A stretch of 64,000 nt of DNA, taken from Nitrososphaeria archaeon. Its GTDB lineage: Archaea; Thermoproteota; Nitrososphaeria; JACIWG01. This document shows, in pieces, positions 1-13,836 of this stretch; the first letter of the stretch is position 1, and each line of letters opens with the position of its first letter. The stretch lies in the NCBI GenBank assembly GCA_050011875.1, contig JBEKIG010000011.1, positions 92,019-156,018 of the forward strand, read 5' to 3'. The notes under the pieces were generated by a model. It was not told the origin of the DNA. It worked only from the letters and a program-made list of their open reading frames with translations, and searched no databases. The position numbers and the translations under genes are program-made.

Positions 1-134
1 TCCCATGCCAGTTTGAGTAGGAGGTCGAATGCCTGCCTGTGGCCTTGATCGACTAAACTGCCTCGATACTGTGATTTGAGCTCATTAACCGTTTCTTCAT
101 AAAGAGTGCGCGCGGAAGGCGTTATTCTACCCAT
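1..134 (-). CDS. small helical protein of the PolB2-operon type (arCOG07300-like), 3'-truncated by window edge
   Basis: Read by hand (not in ORF track): ATG at 134 gives MGRITPSARTLYEETVNELKSQYRGSLVDQGHRQAFDLLLKLAW..., open to the edge; start overlaps the stop of the upstream gene. Confidence 0.75.
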   Translation of the reverse strand, partial: MGRITPSARTLYEETVNELKSQYRGSLVDQGHRQAFDLLLKLAW

Positions 135-1278
135 GTTCGTCATCCCTCGTGGTTACATTGATCCTGTTCCTTATTGATTCAATGTCTTGAGCGAGCCTTT
201 TAGTTTCATCGTCTATGGTGAGGAAGCGGTTTTGGACGGACTCAATAAGTGCACGAGTGTCCACCGATGCTGTAAGGTTCAACCCATCCAAAAGTGTAAA
301 TTCCTTTAGGTTGCTTAATGCCTTCTGTTCCATATTCCAAGCTCCCTTAAGCAGAACATCAAACGCAGACCTGTGCCCAAGATCTAGGAAATCGTTCTGG
401 AAGAACCTTTTGAGGCGGTCCATCTGCTCACCGTAAAGTTGCTGGAAGGATGAAACGTTCCTTCCTGTCATTAGGTCTAAAGAACCGGCTTGACTTACAT
501 ATAGCACTATGGACTCTGGAGTCCTCTTATATGGATGCTTCACAAGCGTTACCTTATAGGATGATATTGGCCCATCGCAGAACTTTCTAAAATGAACTAA
601 GATTGAAGCTGCTTGCCTCATGTAGATCCCACCTAACGGCTTGGGAGCCAATACTTTACCTGTATCTATGGCATCAACGGTCATAACGAAGGCTACATGG
701 TTTTCAGATGCCGTCCTCCAAAGGTTGCCTACAACCTTCTTCAGAACCTCCTTGGACTCCTTAGGCTTCTTCGAGTTTACAAGGAAACGTGTGATGTTAT
801 GGACTGCGAGAAGCTTAATTTCCTTTTTTTCTCTTATCAAATCTGCAACCTCTTTTGACACAAACCATTGTCTTTCTTCATTAAATGCTGCCGCTACCTC
901 TACATTTTTGAAGACAAGGGAAGGATCTATACCCACATGCTTCGCTAGCATGCCGAGCCTTGATGGATCAATTAGAGTCTTGCCGACGTAGTAGTCGGTG
1001 TTGTTAAAGTAGACTGCTTTCGCATCAAGGCCACCTTTTTCGGCTGGCATAACACAGTTTACAAGAAGACGATGTATGAGGAGATCAAGTATCTCTGGCT
1101 CACCGTAGAACAGGTAGAAGGACCCTCCTTCAATTCCACCTATCAGGCTATCTAGGTCACCGGAGCCTGTCGTCAGCTTCAGCCTTTTCCTCTGCTCATC
1201 AAAGTCCTCCAGAGTGGTCTGAATAATTGGCATAGGTCTGTCGCCCATCCTGTGGTCGCCTCCAAGGAGAAGGTTCAC
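127..1278 (-). CDS. RadA/RecA-family paralog with degenerate Walker A, fused to a C-terminal arCOG07300-like domain
   Basis: LTTGSGDLDSLIGGIEGG RadA-type N-motif; FYGEPEILD replaces GxxxxGKT; KPLGG..M L2-like motif; C-terminal MTGRNVSSFQQLY...GHRSAFDVLLKGAW resembles the next gene. True start may be ATG 1248 or 1233. Confidence 0.8.
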   Translation of the reverse strand: MNLLLGGDHRMGDRPMPIIQTTLEDFDEQRKRLKLTTGSGDLDSLIGGIEGGSFYLFYGEPEILDLLIHRLLVNCVMPAEKGGLDAKAVYFNNTDYYVGKTLIDPSRLGMLAKHVGIDPSLVFKNVEVAAAFNEERQWFVSKEVADLIREKKEIKLLAVHNITRFLVNSKKPKESKEVLKKVVGNLWRTASENHVAFVMTVDAIDTGKVLAPKPLGGIYMRQAASILVHFRKFCDGPISSYKVTLVKHPYKRTPESIVLYVSQAGSLDLMTGRNVSSFQQLYGEQMDRLKRFFQNDFLDLGHRSAFDVLLKGAWNMEQKALSNLKEFTLLDGLNLTASVDTRALIESVQNRFLTIDDETKRLAQDIESIRNRINVTTRDDEHG

Positions 1279-1304
1279 TTCGACCTCTCCCCCCCTTAAG
1301 GTAT

Positions 1305-2297
1305 CTAACCTTCTCTGCCCTTCTTTGGCTCCGGATCCTCCACTCCCTTCTCCGATATTACAAAGCGATTTTCTGAATAGGGATGATAAGGACTGTCGAT
1401 AATTGTTGCAATCCTCTCTTGCCCAGCCTTCTTCAAGTAGACCCTGTACGTGCAGGCATGCCCTAAAATGTGTCCTCCAGCAGGCTTTGTAGGGTCCCCG
1501 AAGAACGTGTCCGGCTGTGCTTGAACCTGATTAGTAACTGCTACCGCCACGTTATAGATTTCAGCCATCCTGAGAAGGCGGTGCACGAGACCGTTCAGCT
1601 TCTGCTGTCTCTCAGCCAGCGTCCCTCTTCCCACGAACTCAGCTCTGTGCAAGGATATTATACTATCAACAATGACGAGCTTGACGTTGTACTGTTCGAT
1701 GTATTTTCCGAGCCTTTTGACCGCCAGCTCGAGGTGGCTGCTGTTGTAGACCTTGCAGATTATAACGTTCTTGAGAATTTGGATTGGGTCTAACCCTCTT
1801 GCTTCAGCTATCTGGTAAACCCTCTCTGGGCGGAAGGTGCTTTCAGTATCTATGAAGATCACATTTCCCCCGAATCCACCCTTCTCTATTGGAAGTTGTG
1901 CTGTCACGCAGAGGGTGTGGCAGAGCTGGCTCTTGCCGGAGCCAAATTCACCCCAAAACTCTGTGATAGCCTGAGTCTCAACACCCCCTATGAGCAGGCT
2001 GTCAAGGTTCTTCGAACCTGTCGTACACCTAATCATGGACTTTCTCTTCTCATAATTTTCTATTGCTGGAACGAACTCCTTATCGATTAAGCCGCTTTCC
2101 ATCAACGCCTTTTGAGCGACGAATATCATGGCACTCGCATTCTCCTTCGCACCACCGATCTTATCAGCCACTTCATCTGGTAGGGCGACTGCGAGATCGA
2201 GAACAGATTCTATCCCAGCGTCCTTAAGCTTCTTTTCAGTTGACGGCCCAATACCCTCCAAGTCGCGGAGCTCCATATCAAATACGGTTACAGACAT
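1305..2297 (-). CDS. radA: DNA repair and recombination protein RadA
   Basis: N-terminal HhH (LEGIGPSTEKKL), Walker A GEFGSGKS, IDTESTFRPER, Walker B LVIVDS, GRGTLAERQQ, TNQV, GGHILGH. Confidence 0.96.
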   Translation of the reverse strand: MSVTVFDMELRDLEGIGPSTEKKLKDAGIESVLDLAVALPDEVADKIGGAKENASAMIFVAQKALMESGLIDKEFVPAIENYEKRKSMIRCTTGSKNLDSLLIGGVETQAITEFWGEFGSGKSQLCHTLCVTAQLPIEKGGFGGNVIFIDTESTFRPERVYQIAEARGLDPIQILKNVIICKVYNSSHLELAVKRLGKYIEQYNVKLVIVDSIISLHRAEFVGRGTLAERQQKLNGLVHRLLRMAEIYNVAVAVTNQVQAQPDTFFGDPTKPAGGHILGHACTYRVYLKKAGQERIATIIDSPYHPYSENRFVISEKGVEDPEPKKGREG

Positions 2298-2383
2298 CTT
2301 TCTAACCCCTACAAAAAATATTCCATGGGACGATATTTATTGGATGAAGGACCTTAGGGGAGAGGGGAGGGTGGGTTTAATAC
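2295..2383 (-). promoter_or_regulatory. radA promoter/5'UTR, copy 1 of a duplicated element
   Basis: 36-bp core 2328-2363 (ggacgatatttattggatgaaggaccttaggggaga) matches 3443-3478 with one mismatch; similarity extends to the start codon. Confidence 0.75.
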
Positions 2384-2464
2384 AGCTTTTCTGGAATGTC
2401 ATATAATACACGAATAATCCCTCTCTGTAGATATTCTATTATCAGCTAAAGTATATTTTTCGGA

Positions 2465-2647
2465 TTATTCCTTGAACCACTGAAAATATAGGAAGAAGCC
2501 AACGAATATAATAAGTGTCAAAAGAAAGTATCTTTGGGCTTCAGTAATGTCCTGCATTTCATATAAAATTGTGTAGAACCAATAAGCTAACGCAACTACT
2601 ATAGTAACTCCTACACCCCTTTTTGCCCAATTATCTTTTTCAGTCAA
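2465..2647 (-). CDS. small hypothetical membrane protein (2 TM)
   Basis: 60 aa, two hydrophobic segments, GGAGG upstream of TTG. Confidence 0.6.
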   Translation of the reverse strand: MTEKDNWAKRGVGVTIVVALAYWFYTILYEMQDITEAQRYFLLTLIIFVGFFLYFQWFKE

Positions 2648-2666
2648 AATCCTGAACCTCCATCAT

Positions 2667-2852
2667 TTAGAACCTACCTTCCCCCAATACAAAAGAGATA
2701 ATGGGAATAGCAAGAATGAAAACAAATAGAATTGTGAAAATATCTGGGAGATTAGGAAGTAGAGGAAAAATCAGTAAAAATGCAAACAGAATCGCAAGTA
2801 GACTTAGCATTTTCCTTTTATTTACCCGATTTTTGGAAATTGTTTGACTCAT
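2667..2852 (-). CDS. small hypothetical membrane protein (2 TM)
   Basis: 61 aa, basic N-terminus then hydrophobic hairpin; tandem with previous ORF. Confidence 0.55.
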   Translation of the reverse strand: MSQTISKNRVNKRKMLSLLAILFAFLLIFPLLPNLPDIFTILFVFILAIPIISFVLGEGRF

Positions 2853-2923
2853 TCAAGTCGCAATATAATATTATATACATGCAACGTTGGAAAAACTTTT
2901 GTAGCATAGTACATGCAACATCG

Positions 2924-3355
2924 CTACTCCCTAACCACAAAAAGCGTTCTTCTAGTCATGGAGTATAGCAATGGACAGACTTTGCTATTCAATCTATAAA
3001 ATCGTCCATCCTTTTCGACGAAACCGAATTCGAGCAGCCTCTTCAAAATCCTATAGGCTGTTGTCCTATCACACCTTAATGTTTCTACTACATCTTTTAC
3101 CGTAAGATCCTTCGTCATAACCATCGTCCCAACTACGAGGATGGATTTCCACACCCTCTTTCTTCCATAAGAGGCAGCTTTTATCAGTATTTGAATTTCA
3201 TCCGTGAACTTTTTCATCTCGTATGATGGTGGGAGACGTGAATTGAGCTCCTCCCTCATAACTTTAGAAATGACTTTAGAAATCCTGCTACTTACCCTAT
3301 CGGATAAACTGTCTGCTAAACGGTCTACATCTATTTCCCCATTCACTTTCACCAT
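2924..3355 (-). CDS. winged-HTH transcriptional regulator (IclR/TrmB-like HTH at C-terminus)
   Basis: LTVKDVVETLRCDRTTAYRILKRLLEFGFVEKDGRFYRL is a classic wHTH. Confidence 0.8.
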   Translation of the reverse strand: MVKVNGEIDVDRLADSLSDRVSSRISKVISKVMREELNSRLPPSYEMKKFTDEIQILIKAASYGRKRVWKSILVVGTMVMTKDLTVKDVVETLRCDRTTAYRILKRLLEFGFVEKDGRFYRLNSKVCPLLYSMTRRTLFVVRE

Positions 3356-3361
3356 TTTCTA
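3326..3361. repeat. 36-bp exact direct repeat, copy 1 (covers the start of the wHTH gene)
   Basis: tacatctatttccccattcactttcaccattttcta is identical to 13837-13872. Confidence 0.95.
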
Positions 3362-3410
3362 ATTTCTAGAGGATGGGAGTGATACCTGTATCATCATTCA
3401 TGCTTATTGC

Positions 3411-3493
3411 CATCTTTCTGACCTCCACAAAAACATCCTAGAGGACGATATTAATTGGATGAAGGACCTTAGGGGAGAAGGTGGGGTTAACAC
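3411..3493 (-). promoter_or_regulatory. copy 2 of the radA-type promoter/5'UTR, upstream of the wHTH gene
   Basis: 3443-3478 matches 2328-2363 at 35/36; catctttct..acaaaaa context also shared. Confidence 0.75.
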
Positions 3494-3500
3494 CGTCTTT

Positions 3501-3785
3501 CTAAATATACTCCGACTCCTTGAAGAAACCGTATAGAACCCGGACTACGGGGTTGTCTAGGTTGATCTGGTACCTGAGGTGTATGGCCCTAAGCTCCTTT
3601 ACCCAGTTGATGTTGGTAAGGTGCCTGAGGTTCTCGTTCAGATCGCTTCGCTTTAGCCCTGTACCCTTTATGAGGGAATATTTGGTGAGGGATTCGTTAG
3701 GTTTCTTGGCCAACTCTGCCATAACCTTTATCCTGCCTATTGTTCCAAGGCCCTCCTCAATTTCTCTTTTACGATTGACGTACAT
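3501..3785 (-). CDS. small winged-HTH protein (ArsR-like)
   Basis: 94 aa; RIKVMAEL..LTKYSLIKGTGLKRSDLNENLRHL...WVKE..YQIN wHTH pattern; overlaps cdc6 stop. Confidence 0.8.
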   Translation of the reverse strand: MYVNRKREIEEGLGTIGRIKVMAELAKKPNESLTKYSLIKGTGLKRSDLNENLRHLTNINWVKELRAIHLRYQINLDNPVVRVLYGFFKESEYI

Positions 3786-4965
3786 TCAGCCCAGTCTCCA
3801 ACCGGTTGAACAAACTATCCAAGAAGAGTCCAAGGTTTTCTGTTGGCACACCGCTTATGCCTATCTCTTTGAGAGAACGTATTTCGATTATCCGCCTGTC
3901 GTGTAGGTCCTGAAGGTAGTCGTCAAGGTCCTCAGTTGGCTTAAGGTGCATGTCTTCACATATCATCCCACAATTGAGACGTATATCCCTCATTGAGGTG
4001 TAGGTCTTCCTCGTGTTTCTGAGCGATTTGACCACAGCGAGAAGTGCTATAAGGTGCTCCTTTTTGGGGAGGTTCAGAATATCTTCTTCTGTGATCGAAG
4101 GATGAGTTTCCCCGTGCACTCTGCGGACATGGTCTGGCAGAATCTGTTCAGCTCCCTGGTTCTCTGCTAGGTTACCTGAATATAGAAGTAGGTCAAGGGC
4201 ATATCTTAGGTCACCGTTCACAGGAGAGCTTACCGTTAAGTCTGCTACATATTCTAGAACTTCATCCGATACAACTCTCTGCTGAAAAGCCTCCTTGACT
4301 CTGTCAGCTAGGATGTCAACGATCTCAATGGAAGTATAGGAGGAGAACTCTATTGGAATCCTACCGAGTGTGCTAAGTTCGGCTCGATCAAGCCTTTCTT
4401 GGAAGTCCTTGCTTCTTGCAGTGAAGATAACACCTAACACGTTACATGGTTTTCCCAACTCAATTTCGTTGAGACGGGTTAGATCATAAACCACGCCAGT
4501 ATCCTTTGTACTCCTTATGAAGTAGTCAATTTCATCAAGTGAAATCAGCAGGTATCTTTTCCTCTCTCGAAGCTGTCGGAGCATCACCCGCAACATTTCT
4601 TCTGCACTCAGACTGGAGGAGTATACCTCAGGAGCCCCAGCTTCCAAAAGGTACCTGTACAGCACTACTCTGCTTCCGCCTTGAAGCTTCAGGTTAACGT
4701 AGACATGTCTAATATCACGCTTCAGTTTCGCAGCGTCCTGCTCAAACCTCTGACCGAACCGGAGAACGCTGCTCGTCTTTCCGGAGCCAGCTGGTCCAAC
4801 TATCTGAATAATCTTCAAGAGCGCTCTAGAAGGATCAGCCAAGGCTTCTCTGAAGGAATTGTAAAGGCTTTCAATCTGTTTCTCACGATGTGGCAAGATT
4901 AATGGTACATAGCGAGGAGACAGTTTCTCCCTATCCTTAAAGATCTTACTTTGAGCTCCTATCAA
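3769..4965 (-). CDS. cdc6: Cdc6/Orc1 family AAA+ ATPase (divergent paralog)
   Basis: IFKDREKLSPRYVP..LPHRE, Walker A GPAGSGKT, Walker B LDEID, GDLRYALDLL; start set at TTG 4965 behind GGTGG (ORF track extends to 5073). Confidence 0.92.
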   Translation of the reverse strand: MIGAQSKIFKDREKLSPRYVPLILPHREKQIESLYNSFREALADPSRALLKIIQIVGPAGSGKTSSVLRFGQRFEQDAAKLKRDIRHVYVNLKLQGGSRVVLYRYLLEAGAPEVYSSSLSAEEMLRVMLRQLRERKRYLLISLDEIDYFIRSTKDTGVVYDLTRLNEIELGKPCNVLGVIFTARSKDFQERLDRAELSTLGRIPIEFSSYTSIEIVDILADRVKEAFQQRVVSDEVLEYVADLTVSSPVNGDLRYALDLLLYSGNLAENQGAEQILPDHVRRVHGETHPSITEEDILNLPKKEHLIALLAVVKSLRNTRKTYTSMRDIRLNCGMICEDMHLKPTEDLDDYLQDLHDRRIIEIRSLKEIGISGVPTENLGLFLDSLFNRLETGLNVRQS

Positions 4966-5333
4966 ACCACCAACTAGTATACTATTCAAAGATAATATCT
5001 TTTTAAACACGACTATGTTGTGTAAAGTTCTTGGCTTCAATACACTGTTTTTCCTGCTCAGAGGTAGATCCATCCCACTTTTCCTTCGATTCCTTGAATG
5101 TTCACCCTACGCGGTGTTTTCAGTCGAAATGAGCCGAGAAATACTGTCAGAAACAAACATAAACAAAAAGCAAGAATCAATAGGCCAAGAGGGCTCATGG
5201 GCAAACACGCCAACTAAAAAAACTAGCTAACATTGCTTAAACACATATTTCCTTAGTCTTTCTCCTTCTGTCTTCTCAATTTTTACTTCTAAAACCAGTA
5301 AATGAATTCTTTCAATGCCATTACAAATGAAAG

Positions 5334-5897
5334 TTATTTTCCTCTCCACGACCCCCTACTTGTTACGCTCACGCGAAGCTTAGAGAAGTCTTCTCTGATC
5401 CTAACATCAAAACCCATTGAGTTCAAGAGTGTCAGCAAGAACCTCTTGACGAACTCTTTCGAAGATTCCGACAGCAGAACGAGGGTGAACTCCCTATCCG
5501 ATAGCTTAATTGTCTTAAAGAAATTGCAAGCCTCTAAACGTTCGAAGACGTTTTCTAAGGAGTTCCCTTTTGTAGCAAACTGTTCTGCGTGGGATTTCGC
5601 GATTTCTTCGTTATTTTGCCAGAAAACGTCCTTTTGAGAGGAAGTTTCGATCAGTTTAAGAAAGAGCAGCCAGTGGTCCATATCAAGAATTACATGTTCC
5701 CCGCTGGAAAGCATATCTAGGTAAATGCCCAGTTTATTGAGCGTCTTATCCCCTGCCATTTCTCTGTACTCTTTTAAGAACCTGATCGCTTTTCTCACTA
5801 GTTCGCTTTGGGAGATTTTAAGTTCGTCTTTCATCTCTTCAAGTAGTCTAGCTGTGTCTTCATCAAGTGCACATGTTACTCTAATAGGAACAGCCAT
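5334..5897 (-). CDS. CopG/ribbon-helix-helix regulator with C-terminal ligand-binding (V4R-like) domain
   Basis: RVTCALDEDTARLLEEM..ISQSELVRKAI RHH; GEHVILDMDHW motif. Confidence 0.8.
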   Translation of the reverse strand: MAVPIRVTCALDEDTARLLEEMKDELKISQSELVRKAIRFLKEYREMAGDKTLNKLGIYLDMLSSGEHVILDMDHWLLFLKLIETSSQKDVFWQNNEEIAKSHAEQFATKGNSLENVFERLEACNFFKTIKLSDREFTLVLLSESSKEFVKRFLLTLLNSMGFDVRIREDFSKLRVSVTSRGSWRGK

Positions 5898-6308: not shown

Positions 6309-6764
6309 TTATCCAGAGAAATTGTCGTAAAAGGAAGGATACGATTTGATGAGGACAAGATTAATGCGGAGCACATTCACGTAAGGGCTTCCGAAAATCC
6401 ATAAAGTACCCTCTTCATTTTGGTTAACTAGGGCAATCAGCGAATTGGCTGAGATACCGGTTGCATTACTTATTCGCGGTATCTGTGAGTAGGCATCTTG
6501 AATAGTGATATCCGGATCAACTCCTGAAGCAGAATCATTCCGTGCATGAAAGAAAATGGGCAAAGAAAAATTTTGAGAAATCAAGTTTGATCCAATCGCC
6601 CGTCCATTGACCTTCACAATCTCGCCGTTTGCTTGATACGGAAAAAATACTTGAGCTAGCGCGGTTATGAGAAGAGGGAAAAGCATACCACAAATTATCA
6701 GCGAAACAACTGCAAGAGTAACAATCGGTCTGAAACTCCATTTTTCCTTTTTTTCCAAACCCAT
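6309..6764 (-). CDS. kdpC: K+-transporting ATPase subunit C
   Basis: N-terminal TM, FPYQANG, GSNLISQNF, SASGVDPDIT, VNVLRIN. Confidence 0.93.
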   Translation of the reverse strand: MGLEKKEKWSFRPIVTLAVVSLIICGMLFPLLITALAQVFFPYQANGEIVKVNGRAIGSNLISQNFSLPIFFHARNDSASGVDPDITIQDAYSQIPRISNATGISANSLIALVNQNEEGTLWIFGSPYVNVLRINLVLIKSYPSFYDNFSG

Positions 6765-6776
6765 TTTCCATCATCC

Positions 6777-8957
6777 CTAAACGTGGAAAACTCCTGTGAG
6801 AAGCAGGTCGATCAGCTTAATTCCTACGAAAGGCACGATGACGCCGCCAACACCATAAATCAACGCATTCTTCAGGAAAAGGGTCATGGTATCGGTAGGC
6901 TTGAACTCGATGCCTCGCATCGCAAGAGGGATCAGCAATGGTATGATGATCGCATTAAATATCAATGCAGACAAGACAGCGCTCTTTAGCCCAAGATGGA
7001 GTATGTTCAACGCCTGAAGTTGGGGAATGGCAGCACCAAACAGAACAGGCATTATAGCGAAATATTTTGCAACATCATTAGCAATGCTGAAAGTAGTAAC
7101 AGCCCCACGGGTCATAAGCAATTGTTTCCCCAGCATGATGACGTCAATTACTTTTGCAGGATTAGATTCCAAATCAACCATGTTCGCAGCTTCTTTCGCT
7201 GCCTCAGTCCCAGAATTCATGGCCAGACCTACATCAGCAACCGAAAGGGCTGGAGCGTCATTAGTACCATCACCTATCATAGCTACAATAAGACCTTCAG
7301 CTTGCTCCTTTTTGGCGATGCTGAACTTGTTCTCAGGCTTCGCCTGGGCCACGTATTCATCGATTCCGACCTCATGCGCAATGCTCTTTGCGGTCAAAGG
7401 CTGATCTCCGGTAATCATAACCGGACGTATCCCCATGGTTTTGAGAGCTTCTATTTTCTCCCTAATGCCTTCCTTGAGAACATCCTTCAAGCGAATGACT
7501 CCGATGGCTTTGCCGTTCCGTGCGATGGCTATCGGTGTTTCCCCAGCCATTGAAATCTTCTCCACTAACGTGTCATAATTGGTAGGAACGGAAGGCAAAA
7601 GTTTCTTTATCGATTCCGGGGCACCCTTTATTATTTCGATTTCAGGTTCGGGAATAGAAGCAGCTGCTTTGGTTGCTGAGGAAGATTTTCTCCTGATTCG
7701 AAGCCTTTCGTCAATAGATTTGCCACCCTTCAGCAGCTTCATACCCAAGTGTTGAGTTATCTGCACTCCGCTGGTCCGCGTACTAGCTGAGAATGGCTGA
7801 ACTCTCGACGTTGACAGAGCATTTATTTCGTTGGGCACCCAGCCTCTTTCGTACGCGAGTCTAAGGATACTGCGCCCCTCAGGCGTATCGTCGTGCCAAG
7901 ACGAGAGAAAAGCTGCTTCACCTACATCACGTTCGGTAAATCCTTCAAGCGGTATAAATTCGATTGCCAGCCGGTTCCCTACAGTAATTGTGCCGGTTTT
8001 ATCCAGACATACAACATCCGTATCTCCTGCAGTCTCAATAGCCTTGCCTGACTTTGCAATAATCTTATGCTTGTACAAACGGGACATTCCTGACAACCCA
8101 ATTGCAGGCAATAATGCACCTATTGTTGTCGGCAGAAGGCAAACGTAAAGCGCTATGAGAACTGAAAGATCAGCATTAAGACGAAGCGTAACAGACATTC
8201 CAAGCAACGCCACTATTATTATAGTGAAAATCGCAGTTAGACCAATTAGAACGATAGTAACTGCTACTTCGTTGGGCGTTTTTGGTCTCTTCGAAGACTC
8301 GACCATCTTTATCATCTGATCGATGAAAGTATCACCAGGGTTCGTAGTCACCTTCGCCGTCAAAGTATCACTAACCACTCGTGAACCACCAATCAACGCG
8401 TCCCCAGGCGCTTTCCTTACTGGCGCGGATTCGCCCGTGACGAGTGATTCATCTATCATAGCAATTCCCTCAAGAACATGAGCGTCCAAGGGAACTACGT
8501 CACCTTTCTCGAGAGCTATCAGATCGTCCTTTCTGAGCTCAGTTGATTTCACAGTGATAACTTTTCTAGCCCAATCCTCGGTCAAGATTTTCTTGCTAAG
8601 CACTTCTGTTTCTAGCTTGCGTAAGCTTCCAGCCGTTTGTTTTGCCTGTTGCTCCGCAAGGGCATCCGACAGGGTACTAAACCAGACCGTAATAAGAAGG
8701 ATGGCGGCTATTTCAACGTAGAAGATTTGCAGACTTGGACTCGCAACGGGCATAAAGGCCTTAGGAACAATAGCCATTGCCGCCACGATGAAGAATGTTA
8801 TTTCGACGATCAGCATGACAGGATTCTTGACCAGCGACTTTGGACTTAGTCGGACTATTGAGTCAACCAGCACCTTTCTTGAAAAAGCCGATTTCAATCC
8901 TCCGGAAGCTGAATCTCTCTTCCGTGGTTCGATCTTAGAGGCATTACCCATAGCCAT
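6777..8957 (-). CDS. kdpB: K+-transporting ATPase subunit B (P-type)
   Basis: KNPVM, TGES, KTPNE, CLLPTTIG, DKTGT, GDGTNDAPAL, TRGAVTTFSIANDVAKYF. Confidence 0.97.
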   Translation of the reverse strand: MAMGNASKIEPRKRDSASGGLKSAFSRKVLVDSIVRLSPKSLVKNPVMLIVEITFFIVAAMAIVPKAFMPVASPSLQIFYVEIAAILLITVWFSTLSDALAEQQAKQTAGSLRKLETEVLSKKILTEDWARKVITVKSTELRKDDLIALEKGDVVPLDAHVLEGIAMIDESLVTGESAPVRKAPGDALIGGSRVVSDTLTAKVTTNPGDTFIDQMIKMVESSKRPKTPNEVAVTIVLIGLTAIFTIIIVALLGMSVTLRLNADLSVLIALYVCLLPTTIGALLPAIGLSGMSRLYKHKIIAKSGKAIETAGDTDVVCLDKTGTITVGNRLAIEFIPLEGFTERDVGEAAFLSSWHDDTPEGRSILRLAYERGWVPNEINALSTSRVQPFSASTRTSGVQITQHLGMKLLKGGKSIDERLRIRRKSSSATKAAASIPEPEIEIIKGAPESIKKLLPSVPTNYDTLVEKISMAGETPIAIARNGKAIGVIRLKDVLKEGIREKIEALKTMGIRPVMITGDQPLTAKSIAHEVGIDEYVAQAKPENKFSIAKKEQAEGLIVAMIGDGTNDAPALSVADVGLAMNSGTEAAKEAANMVDLESNPAKVIDVIMLGKQLLMTRGAVTTFSIANDVAKYFAIMPVLFGAAIPQLQALNILHLGLKSAVLSALIFNAIIIPLLIPLAMRGIEFKPTDTMTLFLKNALIYGVGGVIVPFVGIKLIDLLLTGVFHV

Positions 8958-10602
8958 TCACCAACCCTTTAAAGAATGACGAAATCGGCCCTAATGCCAA
9001 GAATGGGAAGAAAGTCAAAACAACCAGTATGATGATGCTTGCGACTAGGACTATAGTGAATATTGGGCTGTCAGTCCTTAGACCTGATGTACCGCCACGT
9101 TTTCTCCCAATCATTGAGCCCGAGAGCGCAAGAAGGATCATGATGGGAACATAACGCCCAATGAAAATAACTATGGCAGTGCTCAGGTTGAAGAAGAGAG
9201 TGTTTCCTGATGCCCCCAAGAAATCGGAACCGTTGTTTGCAGCAGCTGTCGTAAATTCATACAAAATTTGAGTGTATCCAGTAGAGCTACCGCTCACGCC
9301 GATAGCCGAAGCCGCACCTGAAGCATATGCGACAACAGTAGGGATCAGGATAATAATTGGGTGGATTAGAAAAGTTATCATAACAAGCAGCACATCTCGC
9401 CCAGTGATCTTAATTTCCAAGTATTCAGGCGTTCTACCGGACATGAGACCCACAATGAAGACAGTTATGATAATGAACATCACCATGTACATCATGCCAA
9501 CACCCTTTCCGCCAGGGATCGACTGAACGAACATGCCCATGAACGCCGAAACTATCACCAGCGGATGCATCGCCGACAACGAAGAGTTTACAGACCCAGT
9601 CGTAAAGGCAGTAGTTATGACAGTCCAAAAAGTGGACATGAAACCTCCAAACCTCGTTTCAATACCAGGCGCAACGAGTGGAATGCTCGGAAAGGAGGCT
9701 ATCGCTAAATTAACTCCGATAAGAATCAACGCACCCCACAAAAGAGGCCTAGATTCCCGTCTCTTACCAAGCAACTCTCCGAAAACAAAACACAAAGCAA
9801 AAGGAAGCAGCATCATCAATGCAATCTCAAATATGTCTGAGTAAGGGCTCGGATTCATGAATGGATAGGCAGCGTTCGCGCCATAGTACCCGCCGCCGTT
9901 GGTCCCCAACTGCATAATTGACGTAAGGCTCGCCACAGGCCCGATAAGGATCGATTGTGTGGTTCCTTCAACGGTTTTCACAGCAGAGTAGGCATTAAGA
10001 CTTTGGGGAACACCCATTGCGACAAGAATAACTGAAGCAATAATGCAAAGGGGCAAAAGGATTCTGGTGATGGTTCTAACAAAGTCAACAAAGAAGTTCC
10101 CCATATCTTTGGAACCTACGATGAAACCCCGTACCATGGCGATTCCCATGCATATGCCAGTCGCAGCAGAGATCCATTGAAGAAATTGAATGGCAGTCAT
10201 CTGACTAAAAATAGAAAGCGTGGTTTCACCATTGTAATGTTGAAGATTCGTGTTTGTGGCAAACGAGACAACCGTGTTAAGGGCCAAATCCCAACTTAGG
10301 CCAGGAAAGCCTTGAGGATTAAGAGGCAAGTGGCCTTGAAAAACTAAGATTAAAAAGCCAATTACCATTTGTGTGACGTTAAGCAGAAGGCCAGAAAGGA
10401 AGTACTGCTTCCAGCCCATCACCTGGTCAGGGTTCACACCGCCCATTTTGTAAATAAAGTTCTCAACAGGACTAAGTATCTTATCTAAACGGTTTGGAGA
10501 TCGGGTGTAGACTCGCGTTATGTACGGCGCAATCAGCTTCGCAAGAGCCACAGTCACGCCGAGTATCAATACTACTGCCAGAACTTGAACTGCATCTATC
10601 AA
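8944..10602 (-). CDS. kdpA: K+-transporting ATPase subunit A
   Basis: SFATNTNLQHY, LGTNGGG, GRTPEYL, ANNGS selectivity-filter motifs. Confidence 0.96.
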   Translation of the reverse strand: MIDAVQVLAVVLILGVTVALAKLIAPYITRVYTRSPNRLDKILSPVENFIYKMGGVNPDQVMGWKQYFLSGLLLNVTQMVIGFLILVFQGHLPLNPQGFPGLSWDLALNTVVSFATNTNLQHYNGETTLSIFSQMTAIQFLQWISAATGICMGIAMVRGFIVGSKDMGNFFVDFVRTITRILLPLCIIASVILVAMGVPQSLNAYSAVKTVEGTTQSILIGPVASLTSIMQLGTNGGGYYGANAAYPFMNPSPYSDIFEIALMMLLPFALCFVFGELLGKRRESRPLLWGALILIGVNLAIASFPSIPLVAPGIETRFGGFMSTFWTVITTAFTTGSVNSSLSAMHPLVIVSAFMGMFVQSIPGGKGVGMMYMVMFIIITVFIVGLMSGRTPEYLEIKITGRDVLLVMITFLIHPIIILIPTVVAYASGAASAIGVSGSSTGYTQILYEFTTAAANNGSDFLGASGNTLFFNLSTAIVIFIGRYVPIMILLALSGSMIGRKRGGTSGLRTDSPIFTIVLVASIIILVVLTFFPFLALGPISSFFKGLVNGYG

Positions 10603-11151: not shown

Positions 11152-11719
11152 AATGTTTGGCGTGGTAGATTTGCTTTGGACGCTTGTGATAATAGGTTCT
11201 GTAGCTGTAATAACAATAAAGCTGCGTACCGAAATCAAAAATGATATTTGACCATGATAACTCATCATCTATTTGAGTTGGCCTCTAGCCAACACCAGTT
11301 TTTTAAAAAAAACCGCTTGGTAGATTTTAAAGAACAAAACTATGAAGGTAAACACCCTTTTCGGTTTTTTTCCCACAGCATGTCTTTCCTCAAATGATGC
11401 ATAGGGAATGCTTTTTGCATTCTTCTTTGAAAAAATCTTCTTCAATAATTTTTAATGATGATATGTTTCCATGACAGTACTGCAATGACCCTCAACTCAT
11501 GCATTTCTGGGAAAATCTTAGCCACCAAGATTTCCTTATACTTTGGCTAGCAACCAACTATGAATGGTTCTGTTCTGAAAAACGTAAGGCGCTAGAAGCC
11601 CACATATTTTAGAAAAATAGAAGTGGGATTGTCTGAGAATTTTCACAGAGACCCCAATTGTACTGGCTGAATCGGCTTGGGACTCGTTTGAAAGCTACTC
11701 CCAGATAACTGCTTGAAGG

Positions 11720-11956
11720 TTAAACAGGTGTTAGTACAATAGATGTTTCCGTGCGAATGACGTCTGGGTCTTTTTCGACTACCCTGTACACTATTTGGTT
11801 TATGTTCTCAAGGGCAGGGGCCTCAATAATCATGACTGCATCGTATTGGCCAAATATGGCATCTGCTGAGATCATTTCTTTGGTTTTCTCTTTTATTCTC
11901 TTGACTACTTCCAACGAGGTTCCAGGTTTTGTTCTTATTAGAATGTATGCTTTCAT
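11720..11956 (-). CDS. stand-alone Lrp/AsnC ligand-binding domain protein
   Basis: MKAYILIRTKPG...AIFGQYDAV...VIRTETSIV. Confidence 0.9.
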   Translation of the reverse strand: MKAYILIRTKPGTSLEVVKRIKEKTKEMISADAIFGQYDAVMIIEAPALENINQIVYRVVEKDPDVIRTETSIVLTPV

Positions 11957-12064
11957 TCTTTTCTCCTCATTGATTTACTTTCCATCCCTTTTCGTTTGTG
12001 AGTTTTGGCATTTTAGTTCACTATCATTGCCATAATGGGCATATTGTACCCATATTTATCCTTT
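11946..12064. repeat. 119-bp exact direct repeat A, copy 2
   Basis: Identical to 11033-11151. Confidence 0.95.
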
Positions 12065-12203
12065 GAATTGGTGAGCATAATAATGGAGGGAATTGTAATT
12101 TTCCTATTGGAAAAGATAGAGACAGATGAGGCGCTAGCTGCGAGATGCGCAGGAAGAATACCCTGCGTTTTCTTTCAAGAGGAAATTTTAGAGGCTAAAA
12201 AAG

Positions 12204-13766
12204 ATGGCAAGTGACACGACAAGTATTCAAAACCAGCAGCCCTCTAAGATGAAGAAGACCCTGAGCCTTGCAGGTTTAACGATTAATGCCATGGCTTTAA
12301 TAGCTCCAGGTGCGTTCTTGTGGATCACAATCCAGGTTCAGGCGGCTCAGAAAGACCCTGCCGGATTCTCAACAGCGTCCGACATATGGTTCGGGCTCTT
12401 AGTAGCTTTAATCTTATCATTTTTAACCGCTGCCTCGTATGCTTGGCTGTCCAAACGTTATCCAGAATCCGGCGCCGGAAGTTCATATTATTTTGCTCAA
12501 AGAGCCTGGCTTGATCGAGGCAGCAGCAACCGTTCAGCGCGCAACGCCAAATTCGCTGTAGGCTGGCTTTCCCACCTCTATTACTGGGTTTACCCAGGCG
12601 TGATGGTGGCATTCATGGCTGTCCTATTGTCATGGGTCTTACAGACACTAGGTTTCGCCGTTTCTCCATTCGCCCAGATAGCGATTGCATTTGCGTTTGC
12701 AACCGTAACCGGTTACATAGCCTACCGCGGAATACAGGGATCAACGAAGACAAACCTACTTCTCAACATTGTCCAGCTCACTATGCTGGTGGGGGTTACA
12801 ATAATGGCACTAGCCTATCGTTTCCTTAACCCCAATTTAAGCTTCGAGTTCTCCAACATCGGCAGCATAGTTATTCCCCACAACGCTAGCCACGTATTGT
12901 TTCAAGCAACTATCGCCATACTTGTATTGGTAGGATTTGAAACAGCCACAGCTTTGACAGCAGAAGCAAAAAACCCTAAGGATGTTCCAAGAGCAGTAGT
13001 CCTCTCACTCGCAATACAAGGAGCCTTTGCATACCTATTCGCATACTTCGGATTCCTAGCATGGATTTCTAAAGATGGGTTAGCGGCGGCTGCAGCATCA
13101 AGTGCTCCTTATGGAGACATGGTCCGCAATCTTGGAAACGTATTCTTTGGCGGAAACGGTTTCATTCTCATGATGATAGTCGCAGTAGTCGTTCTTGCGG
13201 CAATTCTCGGTACCACTCTCGCTTGCATGAACACAGGCGTGCGAGTTACCTATGCCATTAGCAGCGACACAGAAGTCCCTCGGCAGCTAAGCAAGATGAA
13301 CCCACAGTACGCCACTCCAGGAGTAGGGATCTGGGTGATGACTCTGATTTCAGCGATTATCGGTGCCTTCGGTGCCCTTTCCGTTATAAATTTAACAGCG
13401 ATTTGTTTACTTTCAAACGTTGGTACTTTCATACTCTACGGGCTGACGAATTTCGTGGCGATGCTTGCCTTTGCTAAAGAGCGCAGTTCAATCCTAAAAC
13501 GCCGAATAGTTCCCCTTCTTGGCCTTAGCGCAAACGTCCTGATGCTTGGCGTCGTCGTTTGGCTCGGTTTGCTTGGTGGGGGAGACTCAGCTTGGGAAGC
13601 GTTATTTGCACTGGCTGGCACAGCAATTTGGTTACTTCTAGGCTTGGTATACTTCCGGGTAAACTCGAGAACACAGTCCTCCCCATTGTTCCCATTCCCA
13701 GGCTTGGAGCCAACAAACGACAAGAAAACGAGATACACAACAAGGAAAGATCAAGGGGGATTTTGA
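12204..13766 (+). CDS. APC-superfamily amino acid/polyamine permease
   Basis: About 12 TM; MALIAPG, GSSYYF, VGFETATALTAEAKNP, RVTYA..P..L...NP.YATP. Confidence 0.9.
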   Translation: MASDTTSIQNQQPSKMKKTLSLAGLTINAMALIAPGAFLWITIQVQAAQKDPAGFSTASDIWFGLLVALILSFLTAASYAWLSKRYPESGAGSSYYFAQRAWLDRGSSNRSARNAKFAVGWLSHLYYWVYPGVMVAFMAVLLSWVLQTLGFAVSPFAQIAIAFAFATVTGYIAYRGIQGSTKTNLLLNIVQLTMLVGVTIMALAYRFLNPNLSFEFSNIGSIVIPHNASHVLFQATIAILVLVGFETATALTAEAKNPKDVPRAVVLSLAIQGAFAYLFAYFGFLAWISKDGLAAAAASSAPYGDMVRNLGNVFFGGNGFILMMIVAVVVLAAILGTTLACMNTGVRVTYAISSDTEVPRQLSKMNPQYATPGVGIWVMTLISAIIGAFGALSVINLTAICLLSNVGTFILYGLTNFVAMLAFAKERSSILKRRIVPLLGLSANVLMLGVVVWLGLLGGGDSAWEALFALAGTAIWLLLGLVYFRVNSRTQSSPLFPFPGLEPTNDKKTRYTTRKDQGGF

Positions 13767-13836
13767 TAGCCTTCGATAAACATCCTTATTCTTCTTTTGT
13801 TCGTGAAAACCATTACAATACGTTTCTTTTTTGGTG

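Follow-up and report, generated by a model that had tools for sequence, protein, structure and literature searches.

How is damage tolerance controlled in archaea outside the Sulfolobales, and could a paralog of Cdc6 serve there as an analogue of LexA? The question is raised by a locus at the left end of a 64,000-nucleotide stretch of DNA (contig C11:92019-156018, hereafter the window) from the metagenome-assembled genome of a Nitrososphaeria archaeon, labelled G000 (2.64 Mb in 119 contigs). A first-pass annotation of these letters had proposed a damage-inducible, SOS-like regulon in which a Cdc6 gene, two winged helix-turn-helix (wHTH) proteins and a RadA recombinase are linked to accessories of the archaeal polymerase PolB2. 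Our study suggests that this is a PolB2 mutasome locus of the Nitrososphaeria that carries an active-type RadA paralog (radA2), a C-rich promoter element (the C-box), a Cdc6 paralog and an ArsR-fold protein as candidate regulators (cdc6X and wHTH94), a three-gene cassette and a frameshift in polB2, and we hold this explanation as a whole to be the probable one. The earlier interpretation is partly supported, being right in outline about the PolB2 locus, the non-initiator Cdc6, the conserved linkage and the private cis element; its guess of a bathyarchaeial host was wrong, the host belonging to the Nitrososphaeria. The same stretch is found in peat and soil metagenomes, and the lineages concerned include abundant soil and peat archaea.

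Part of this picture is already known. An operon of polB2 with genes for an inactivated RadA-like protein (iRadA) and a small arCOG07300-type protein (PPB2), and the enrichment of orc1/cdc6 genes near polB2, have been published (Makarova et al., PMC4104785; Timinskas et al., PMC11791011; here and below, published reports are cited for parts of their text). Beyond those texts, the present work adds radA2, the pair formed by cdc6X and the ArsR-fold gene, the C-box and the frameshift.

The locus and the genomes compared

Positions 1-5073 of the window carry on the minus strand, in order of transcription, cdc6X, wHTH94, wHTH143, two small hydrophobic open reading frames (ORFs), radA2, an iRadA::PPB2 fusion and PPB2. 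The single strand and the two overlapping junctions reported for these genes agree with the ORF positions (cdc6X/wHTH94 at 3769-3785 and iRadA/small gene at 127-143, 17 nucleotides (nt) each); all the ORFs that had been named are present, and the two hydrophobic ones had been missed. The features are listed below, L004 being the stretch of the contig to the left of position 1.

3769..5073, minus strand: cdc6X, an AAA+ protein with a lid and a weak C-terminal winged helix (Cdc6_lid 74 bits, TIGR02928 201 bits)
3501..3785, minus strand: wHTH94, 94 amino acids, with a modelled ArsR/SmtB fold, overlapping cdc6X by 17 nt
3411..3503, minus strand: promoter/leader copy 2, with a degenerate C-box at about 3472-3486, TATA-like AATTAATAT at about 3447-3455, a Shine-Dalgarno sequence and an ATG at 3411-3413
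2924..3355, minus strand: wHTH143, 143 amino acids, a TrmB/IclR/Lrs14-like helix-turn-helix (HTH) protein (Pfam TrmB 32 bits)
2667-2852 and 2465-2647, minus strand: two small hydrophobic ORFs of 61 and 60 amino acids in a stretch of low G+C (0.34), no Pfam match
2295..2393, minus strand: promoter/leader copy 1 of radA2, with the C-box CCCACCCTCCCCTCTCCCC at 2357-2375, TATA-like AATAAATAT at 2333-2341, a Shine-Dalgarno sequence and an ATG at 2295-2297
1305..2297, minus strand: radA2, full length, first gene of the operon (NF003301 405 bits)
127..1278, minus strand: predicted iRadA::PPB2 fusion (Rad51 66 bits; C-terminus 34% identical to the separate PPB2)
1..143, minus strand: PPB2, arCOG07300-type, 120 amino acids, MGRITPS arm (first 47 codons in the window; whole gene at L004 13781-14143)
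L004 about 11630-13800, left of position 1, minus strand: polB2 (PF00136 115 bits)

For comparison, 57 PolB2 loci were taken from species-representative genomes, and the tallies within the class refer to 201 genomes, namely G000 and a drawn sample of 200 (the unpublished G131, with a single RadA match, is counted). G001 belongs to the same genus as G000, and G003 to a sister genus. Identical sequences were merged in the trees, and ORFs that were extended at the N-terminus were cut back to the first Met close to where the alignment begins. The gene order is kept across Nitrososphaeria, Bathyarchaeia, Geothermarchaeota and Brockarchaeota, in line with the conserved linkage that had been expected.

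A PolB2 operon led by a second RadA

A polB2 gene had been predicted to the left of position 1, and a family-B polymerase is indeed encoded directly downstream of PPB2; it matches PolB structures in the PDB at 1e-44, and PF03104 at 44 bits on a fragment only. The ExoI motif FDIE has become FDIN in G001 and FGIN in G000, and in an alignment to 5mdn the Asp of ExoII is replaced by Ala. On the polymerase side, R285 and D286 of the loop motif RDRGG and the Asp of motif A are invariant in 7 orthologs, as are D430 and D432 of the intact YADTDS motif; most PolB2 proteins have the first Asp of DxD replaced, unlike the one here, and an intact DxD has been described in some TACK members (Timinskas et al., PMC11791011). 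The replaced acidic residues of the exonuclease, together with the intact polymerase motifs, thus predict a PolB2 of the exonuclease-dead, polymerase-competent, DxD-intact kind.

The "dead RadA" and small helical gene of the first-pass annotation correspond to iRadA and PPB2, as judged from motif loss, the arm motif and a three-helix model. The Rad51 match of iRadA spans residues 31-232, i.e. the core alone, the N-terminal domain being absent. Its Walker A motif reads GEPEILDL, compared with GEFGSGKS in RadA, and its Walker B reads LLAVHN, with loss of the Asp. Because its C-terminal 110 residues (about 272-380) resemble the 120-residue protein, at 34% identity, the operon appears to encode an iRadA::PPB2 fusion plus a separate PPB2. 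The separate copy begins with MGRITPS and the arm of the fused copy is degenerate (MTGRNVSS; alignment of 15 sequences), the same pattern as that reported for PPB2 duplications, where only one of the two copies retains the arm (PMC11791011). The PPB2 model consists of three helices (8-24, 30-53 and 59-109; predicted local distance difference test score (pLDDT) 69.5). iRadA was seen in 48 of the 57 PolB2 loci, of which only two, the closest relatives L107 and L108, have both a fusion and a separate PPB2 in one operon.

Two variants of the operon were seen in other genomes. In the sister genus (G003, L036 8610-10331), an ORF of 573 amino acids lies between radA2 and iRadA and ends exactly at the iRadA start; its N-terminus is OB-like, it contains a CxxC...CxxxC cluster, and it matches PAZ weakly (18 bits, below cut-off). 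The PolB2 ORF of G005 (L040/L152) is 898 amino acids long, with an in-frame insert of about 170 residues that splits the match between query residues 384/383 and is possibly a mini-intein; that locus has neither radA2 nor a C-box.

The recombinase that had been placed in the regulon is an extra paralog and not the RadA of the cell: a second full-length RadA, 50% identical to radA2, is encoded on contig C4 and is the housekeeping copy. RadA2 scores well above the cut-off of the RadA family (405 bits to NF003301, cut-off 259; HHH_5 27 bits), and with its FxxA, P-loop and Walker B motifs present it is predicted to be an ATPase-competent RadA paralog. RadA was found in all 41 relatives, and two or more copies only in G000, G001, G002, G010, G012, G035 and G038, all of which have PolB2. 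Of the 48 loci with iRadA, 42 have at least 1.2 kb of upstream sequence, and in 27 of these the gene immediately before iRadA encodes an active-type RadA. A RadA tree of 59 sequences, built without an outgroup and with a housekeeping set drawn from one class, separates 30 PolB2-linked from 29 housekeeping proteins by one branch, with one label change and a Shimodaira-Hasegawa-like approximate likelihood ratio test (SH-aLRT) value of 90. In this tree, radA2 of the Nitrososphaeria clusters with radA2 of Bathyarchaeia, Geothermarchaeota and Brockarchaeota. GxxxxGK[ST] and Walker B are retained in all 30 PolB2-linked proteins and FxxA in most of them, and residue 189 distinguishes the groups, being Leu in radA2 and Gln in housekeeping RadA. 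An active RadA in PolB2 operons is described neither in the main text of PMC11791011 and PMC4104785 nor in what a literature search returned; the supplements of those papers may list RadA neighbours.

G000 has in addition a third, divergent RadA-like ORF of 462 amino acids with a Cys-rich insert after the P-loop (contig C43, 1889-3274). Since this contig is short (4 kb), the ORF may belong to a mobile element or to contamination.

The C-box at the operon promoter

A shared promoter element had been noted in the locus, and positions 2295-2393 and 3411-3503 do align, with 83% identity over 77-78 nt and 97% within a 36-nt core. Copy 2 follows directly after the wHTH94 stop codon, and its ATG opens a 15-codon leader ORF (3366-3413) that ends 10 nt before wHTH143. 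No further copy of the approximately 98-nt element was found in the 2.64-Mb assembly; G001 has two copies and G003 one. A scan for sigma-70 promoters and terminators, of a type ill-suited to archaea, gave counts at the level of shuffled sequence.

The part of the element that recurs elsewhere is the C-box, whose general form is CCCCCCTCCCCCC. In most lineages a C-run such as ACCCCCCTCCCCCC stands upstream of the first operon gene (radA2, else iRadA), with a TATA box some 15-20 nt further on. The box was scored strictly, as 12 nt with ten or more C and not a single G, and was sought on the operon strand between 220 nt before the approximate start of the gene and 30 nt within it. By this measure it was present 18-170 nt upstream in 20 of the 45 loci whose first gene is defined; from the 70 matches on both strands of 859 kb of loci, about 0.5 are expected in these windows. 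Inspection added L149, L162, G002 and G010. The 41 relatives include ten PolB2 genomes, and all but one of these have the box. A scan of the whole G000 genome returned 56 C-rich sites, and the only real gene with such a site upstream, apart from the degenerate duplicate of its promoter, is radA2, under filters that may be too strict. The cis element private to the regulon thus has its counterpart in the C-box of the radA2/PolB2 operon promoters.

The same box marks unlinked genes. In G183, a complete genome of 2.8 Mb from family f12, the exact 11-mer CCCCCTCCCCC occurs four times, and two of these sites are the promoters of an unlinked radA2 and of an iRadA-like/PolB2-like operon; cdc6X-wHTH94 lies about 6 kb from this stand-alone radA2. 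G199 and G121 have the same box before radA2. In three genomes of genus g43 that have a radA2-like gene, neither cdc6X (at E <= 1e-60) nor the C-box was seen. The box appears to be tied to cdc6X/wHTH94, because within one family G183 has both and the three g43 genomes neither.

An exact C-box with a TATA box was also seen upstream of small ORFs in G121 (C25:36245, L172) and G199 (C7:17783, L171), which encode proteins of 114 amino acids with a CxxC and of 93 amino acids and could be additional regulon members in family f12. Seven closely related radA2 operons of Caldarchaeales type (L137, L138, L140 and L143-L146) share CACTTTCGCCGAGGGGTCTTAAGCTATTT and not the C-box, with an ANTTTC-like hexamer inside it. 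The ANTTTC-like CACTTTCG of these loci and the GAAAGT of genus g43 were rejected as evidence because the motif is short and the loci are close kin.

A non-initiator Cdc6 and its winged-helix partner

The alignment of cdc6X with its orthologs begins only at about residue 37-44, so that the true start is probably near 4965. Across 21 orthologs, Walker A, Walker B and the sensor-2 Arg are conserved; the Cdc6_C match is below cut-off (17.9 bits). That this Cdc6 is not an initiator, as the annotation had supposed, is supported by its low score to Orc1-1, by its place in a clade of its own and by the presence of an Orc1-1-type gene on contig C10. The C10 protein scores 350 bits to Sso Orc1-1 (2qby_A) and 328 to A. 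pernix ORC1 (2v1u), compared with 104 and 110 bits for cdc6X, which scores 122 to P. aerophilum Cdc6. In a tree of 44 Cdc6 sequences, the cdc6X clade has 22 members, i.e. the window, 17 PolB2 neighbours and 4 unlinked genes (SH-aLRT 100, stem 0.75), and is apart from the clade of the C10 gene, to which the single Cdc6 of families f5 and f6 also belongs; the broken cdc6X of G008 (L084) was included neither in this tree nor in the ortholog alignment. A profile of the clade gives 96 bits to A. pernix ORC2 (1w5s), 199 to Sso Orc1-1 and 211 to P. aerophilum Cdc6. We take 1w5s to represent the Orc1-2 clade. A literature search turned up no paper on the clade to which P. aerophilum Cdc6 belongs.

cdc6X adjoins the PolB2 operon in 17 of the 57 loci, in co-directional, divergent and convergent arrangements, and is unlinked in G003 (180 kb away) and in G010 and G035 (other contigs). 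At the class level, 29 of the 201 genomes have cdc6X, and 28 of these also have PolB2 (or a PolB2-like protein) and/or a second RadA, the exception being G008, whose cdc6X is interrupted by stops; the genomes are related and not independent, and these figures are to be read as counts. PolB2 itself gave a match at E <= 1e-60 in 36 of the 201 genomes; the identity is at least 37% in 27 of them and 28-33% in the other 9. In genus g43, six genomes carry a radA2-like gene but no cdc6X.

The partner gene, wHTH94, comes next after cdc6X in all relatives that were checked and in 14 of the 17 loci where cdc6X neighbours PolB2, usually with an overlap. It has no Pfam match of its own, and 10 of 17 orthologs match a wHTH family, weakly (best E-value 5.6e-5). 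Its AlphaFold2 model (pLDDT 93) shows the a1-a2-a3-aR-b-b-a5 arrangement of the ArsR/SmtB type, with Foldseek template modelling scores of 0.72-0.77 to SmtB, CzrA and ArsR, and we assign it an ArsR/SmtB fold on the strength of this model. A complex prediction for cdc6X and wHTH94 scored 0.00 in two runs in which the controls were unfolded, and is no evidence either way. Weaker wHTH94-like genes stand behind every other non-Orc1-1 clade of Cdc6 paralogs (L086-L100, L105) and not behind Orc1-1-type genes; a Cdc6 paralog with a small wHTH partner would therefore be a general two-gene module in this class.

A genus-specific cassette

The second wHTH gene, wHTH143, had been counted among the regulators of the system. 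Among the loci examined, however, it and the two hydrophobic ORFs are present only in G000 and G001, so that it is not a conserved part but belongs to an insert specific to the genus, together with two membrane ORFs. The hydrophobic ORFs are 85-87% identical in G001, compared with 95-98% for the neighbouring genes. The simplest reading is that a three-gene cassette was inserted in this genus and took over a copy of the radA2 promoter, in which case it would be co-regulated with the operon. wHTH143 has weak matches to NCBIfam Sta1 (28 bits, cut-off 80, HTH alone) and Lrs14 (20 bits, cut-off 90), which we treat as a lead only.

On the far side of cdc6X, positions 5334-5897 (minus strand) encode a 187-residue protein, RHH187, with an N-terminal ribbon-helix-helix domain (PF01402, 33 bits) and a weak match to the aCcr1 family (19 bits, cut-off 60). 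It was considered as a member of the cluster and rejected, being absent beside cdc6X in G001, where no counterpart was found in the 6.4 kb upstream of that gene. Further on, positions 6309-10602 (minus strand) presumably hold a potassium-transport ATPase operon, their motifs resembling the kdpC-kdpB-kdpA type.

A proposed mechanism and its rivals

Gene set, operon structure, paralogy, co-inheritance and box distribution can be read from the sequences, and they suggest the following mechanism. The genes radA2, iRadA::PPB2, PPB2 and polB2 would form one transcription unit expressed from the C-box promoter. By homology, PolB2 would act together with iRadA and a trimer of PPB2 as a lesion-bypass or extender polymerase; models of a PolB2-iRadA-PPB2 complex have been published (PMC11791011), and what is known of the composition of the PolB2 holoenzyme comes from models only. 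RadA2 most likely forms the filament on single-stranded DNA on which this complex is loaded or switched on, as RecA does for Pol V. The second unit, upstream, consists of cdc6X and wHTH94, whose products are most likely dedicated transcription regulators acting at the C-box, as Orc1-2 acts at the DNA damage-responsive element (DDRE) of damage genes in the Sulfolobales. Between the two units, the cassette of wHTH143 and two membrane proteins would have been inserted and wired in by duplication of the promoter and leader. We infer regulation by cdc6X and/or wHTH94, and the position of the C-box upstream of the TATA box fits activation and repression equally well. By analogy, induction by damage and sensing of damage by the locus would be further steps of this mechanism.

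Several observations weigh against this explanation. The polB2 gene of this very strain is frameshifted. cdc6X was not seen in 7 of the 27 genomes with the closer PolB2 matches, several of these genomes being only 73-88% complete. G012 has the C-box and the operon but lacks an ortholog of cdc6X; what it has is a divergent Cdc6 paralog, next to which stands a weak wHTH match. Upstream of the seven Caldarchaeales-type loci the element is another one. No C-box was seen before the cdc6X genes inspected (L079, L081, L082 and the window; unlinked or co-directional). The Cdc6-wHTH pairing is a general module that could serve replication origins. Lastly, PolB2 modelled with an active RadA gave a poor score (Timinskas et al., PMC11791011), so that any contact with RadA2 would be made via iRadA or DNA and not through a PolB2 motif.

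The thought of replication origins leads to the best of the rival explanations, in which cdc6X and wHTH94 form a loading or initiation module that, with RadA2, starts recombination-dependent, origin-independent replication or restarts forks, the first synthesis being done by the PolB2 complex. A role in alternative initiation or origin regulation has been proposed for the neighbourhood of PolB2, inactive RadA, arCOG07300 and arORC2 (Makarova et al., PMC4104785), and the complete AAA+ site kept in cdc6X, the co-inherited active recombinase and the Cdc6-wHTH pairs of other paralog clades, which may serve secondary origins, would all suit it. However, no useful ORB (origin recognition box)-like repeats were found upstream of or beside cdc6X, and in G183 the conserved box sits just upstream of the TATA box at two unlinked promoters, like the site of a transcription factor. 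The orientation of cdc6X relative to the operon varies, which is typical of regulator-target pairs, and the ArsR fold of its partner is a classical repressor fold. We therefore consider a replication module unlikely.

The frameshift gives rise to a second rival, that the module is decaying in this strain. In the full-length polB2 frame, the T-run that follows about codon 43 is one T short (L004 13671/13672, some 330 nt to the left of position 1), and some 66 conserved N-terminal residues, GW(I/L)LDVY... in the orthologs, are missing from the 660-residue ORF and encoded in another frame. The T-run is complete in G001, in G003 and in a related soil strain (run X4), the X4 strain having its extra base at exactly the same place, while the contigs of runs X1 and X2 (depths 7.9 and 36) agree with G000 in lacking the T. 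These two runs may, however, be the source of the assembly and are then not independent, and contigs hide minority variants. The frameshift implies that polB2 of this strain is truncated, re-initiated or frameshifted. Loss of the N-terminal 66 residues, or of PolB2 altogether, would leave the strain with no working mutasome, an outcome that we find quite improbable: what is left of the gene, 660 codons, is intact and shares 96% identity with G001, all other genes of the locus are intact, and re-initiation at an internal ATG or translational frameshifting could still yield a protein.

The weakest rival, a horizontally moving island whose parts are linked only by co-transfer and whose element-type cdc6X has no control over the polymerase genes, is very improbable: the patchiness of PolB2 in the class (36/201 genomes), the clustering of Nitrososphaeria RadA2 and cdc6X with copies from Bathyarchaeia, Geothermarchaeota and Brockarchaeota and the frequent PolB2 transfer inferred within archaea (PMC11791011) would fit it, but there are no flanking repeats and no flanking tRNA gene (the sole one in L004, tRNA-Lys at 705-780, is about 11 kb beyond polB2), cdc6X is retained when it is unlinked from the operon, and the C-box tracks the presence of cdc6X inside one family.

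Returning to the mutasome locus with its own candidate regulators, a bolder and rather doubtful extension is that it represents a portable SOS-like circuit of the Thermoproteota, including the large soil-type genomes of family f12. The AAA+ Cdc6 and its ArsR-fold partner would read the G/C-run operator and switch a private regulon of the PolB2 complex and RadA2, and the mutasome would be PolB2-iRadA-PPB2 acting on a RadA2 filament, a counterpart of LexA/RecA/UmuD'2C. The G-run of the operator, a preferred site of oxidative damage, might itself help to sense damage. If true, the circuit bears on induced mutagenesis and genome stability in these archaea. The co-inheritance of radA2 with PolB2 points to a recombinase filament as a component of the machine, and the locus offers handles on it: an active RadA paralog dedicated to the operon, a discrete subfamily of Cdc6 whose wHTH partner is obligate, and a short and highly specific box that marks even unlinked targets. 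The idea of a Cdc6 paralog as the archaeal analogue of LexA could thereby be tested in vitro, given a few proteins and a DNA of 60 bp.

Comparison with known systems

The closest known system is the PolB2 mutasome operon itself (PMC4104785, PMC11791011), with which the locus shares the order iRadA-PPB2-PolB2, an iRadA without N-terminal domain and ATPase motifs, the MGR(I)T arm and three helices of PPB2, the loss of the exonuclease and the D(R) motif, with an intact DxD as in some TACK members. Fusions of iRadA with PPB2, duplicated PPB2 genes and a neighbouring orc1/cdc6 gene have been described there too (PMC11791011). The present locus differs by an active RadA paralog as first gene, by a fusion and a separate PPB2 together, by the C-box promoter and the polB2 frameshift, and by an obligate ArsR-fold partner of the Cdc6 gene.

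For the regulators, the nearest parallel is Orc1-2 of the Sulfolobales, which binds ANTTTC and controls dpo2 (Sun 2018, PMC6061795). Like cdc6X, it is a non-initiator Orc1/Cdc6 paralog tied to PolB2/Dpo2 genes, and in both cases a short conserved promoter element precedes the target genes. The element is ANTTTC there and a C-run here; the regulon is global there, whereas the apparent regulon here, known from sequence, is tiny (radA2 and the PolB2 operon); and cdc6X is accompanied by a separate wHTH gene. In addition, the cdc6X profile is closer to Orc1-1-type proteins and P. aerophilum Cdc6 (199-211 bits) than to A. pernix ORC2 (96 bits).

A small wHTH protein linked to a damage-inducible RadA paralog is also known from S. 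solfataricus, where Sta1 activates the radA paralogue sso0777 (PMC2175319). The Sta1 match of wHTH143 is confined to the HTH and well below cut-off, however, and wHTH94 has no such match; moreover, sso0777 is a paralog of the aRadC type, whereas radA2 encodes a full-length RadA.

Compared with the bacterial SOS mutasomes (LexA-RecA-UmuD'2C, i.e. Pol V, and ImuA-ImuB-DnaE2), the polymerases are unrelated, of family B here and of family Y or C there, and the parallel is functional only. In place of a self-cleaving repressor of the LexA type, which is absent here, the candidates are an AAA+ Cdc6 and an ArsR-fold protein. Both kinds of system nevertheless bring together an error-prone polymerase, or one predicted to be so, an accessory of the RecA family, a small subunit and a linked regulator, and in both an inactive RecA-like protein (ImuA there, iRadA here) stands beside an active recombinase.

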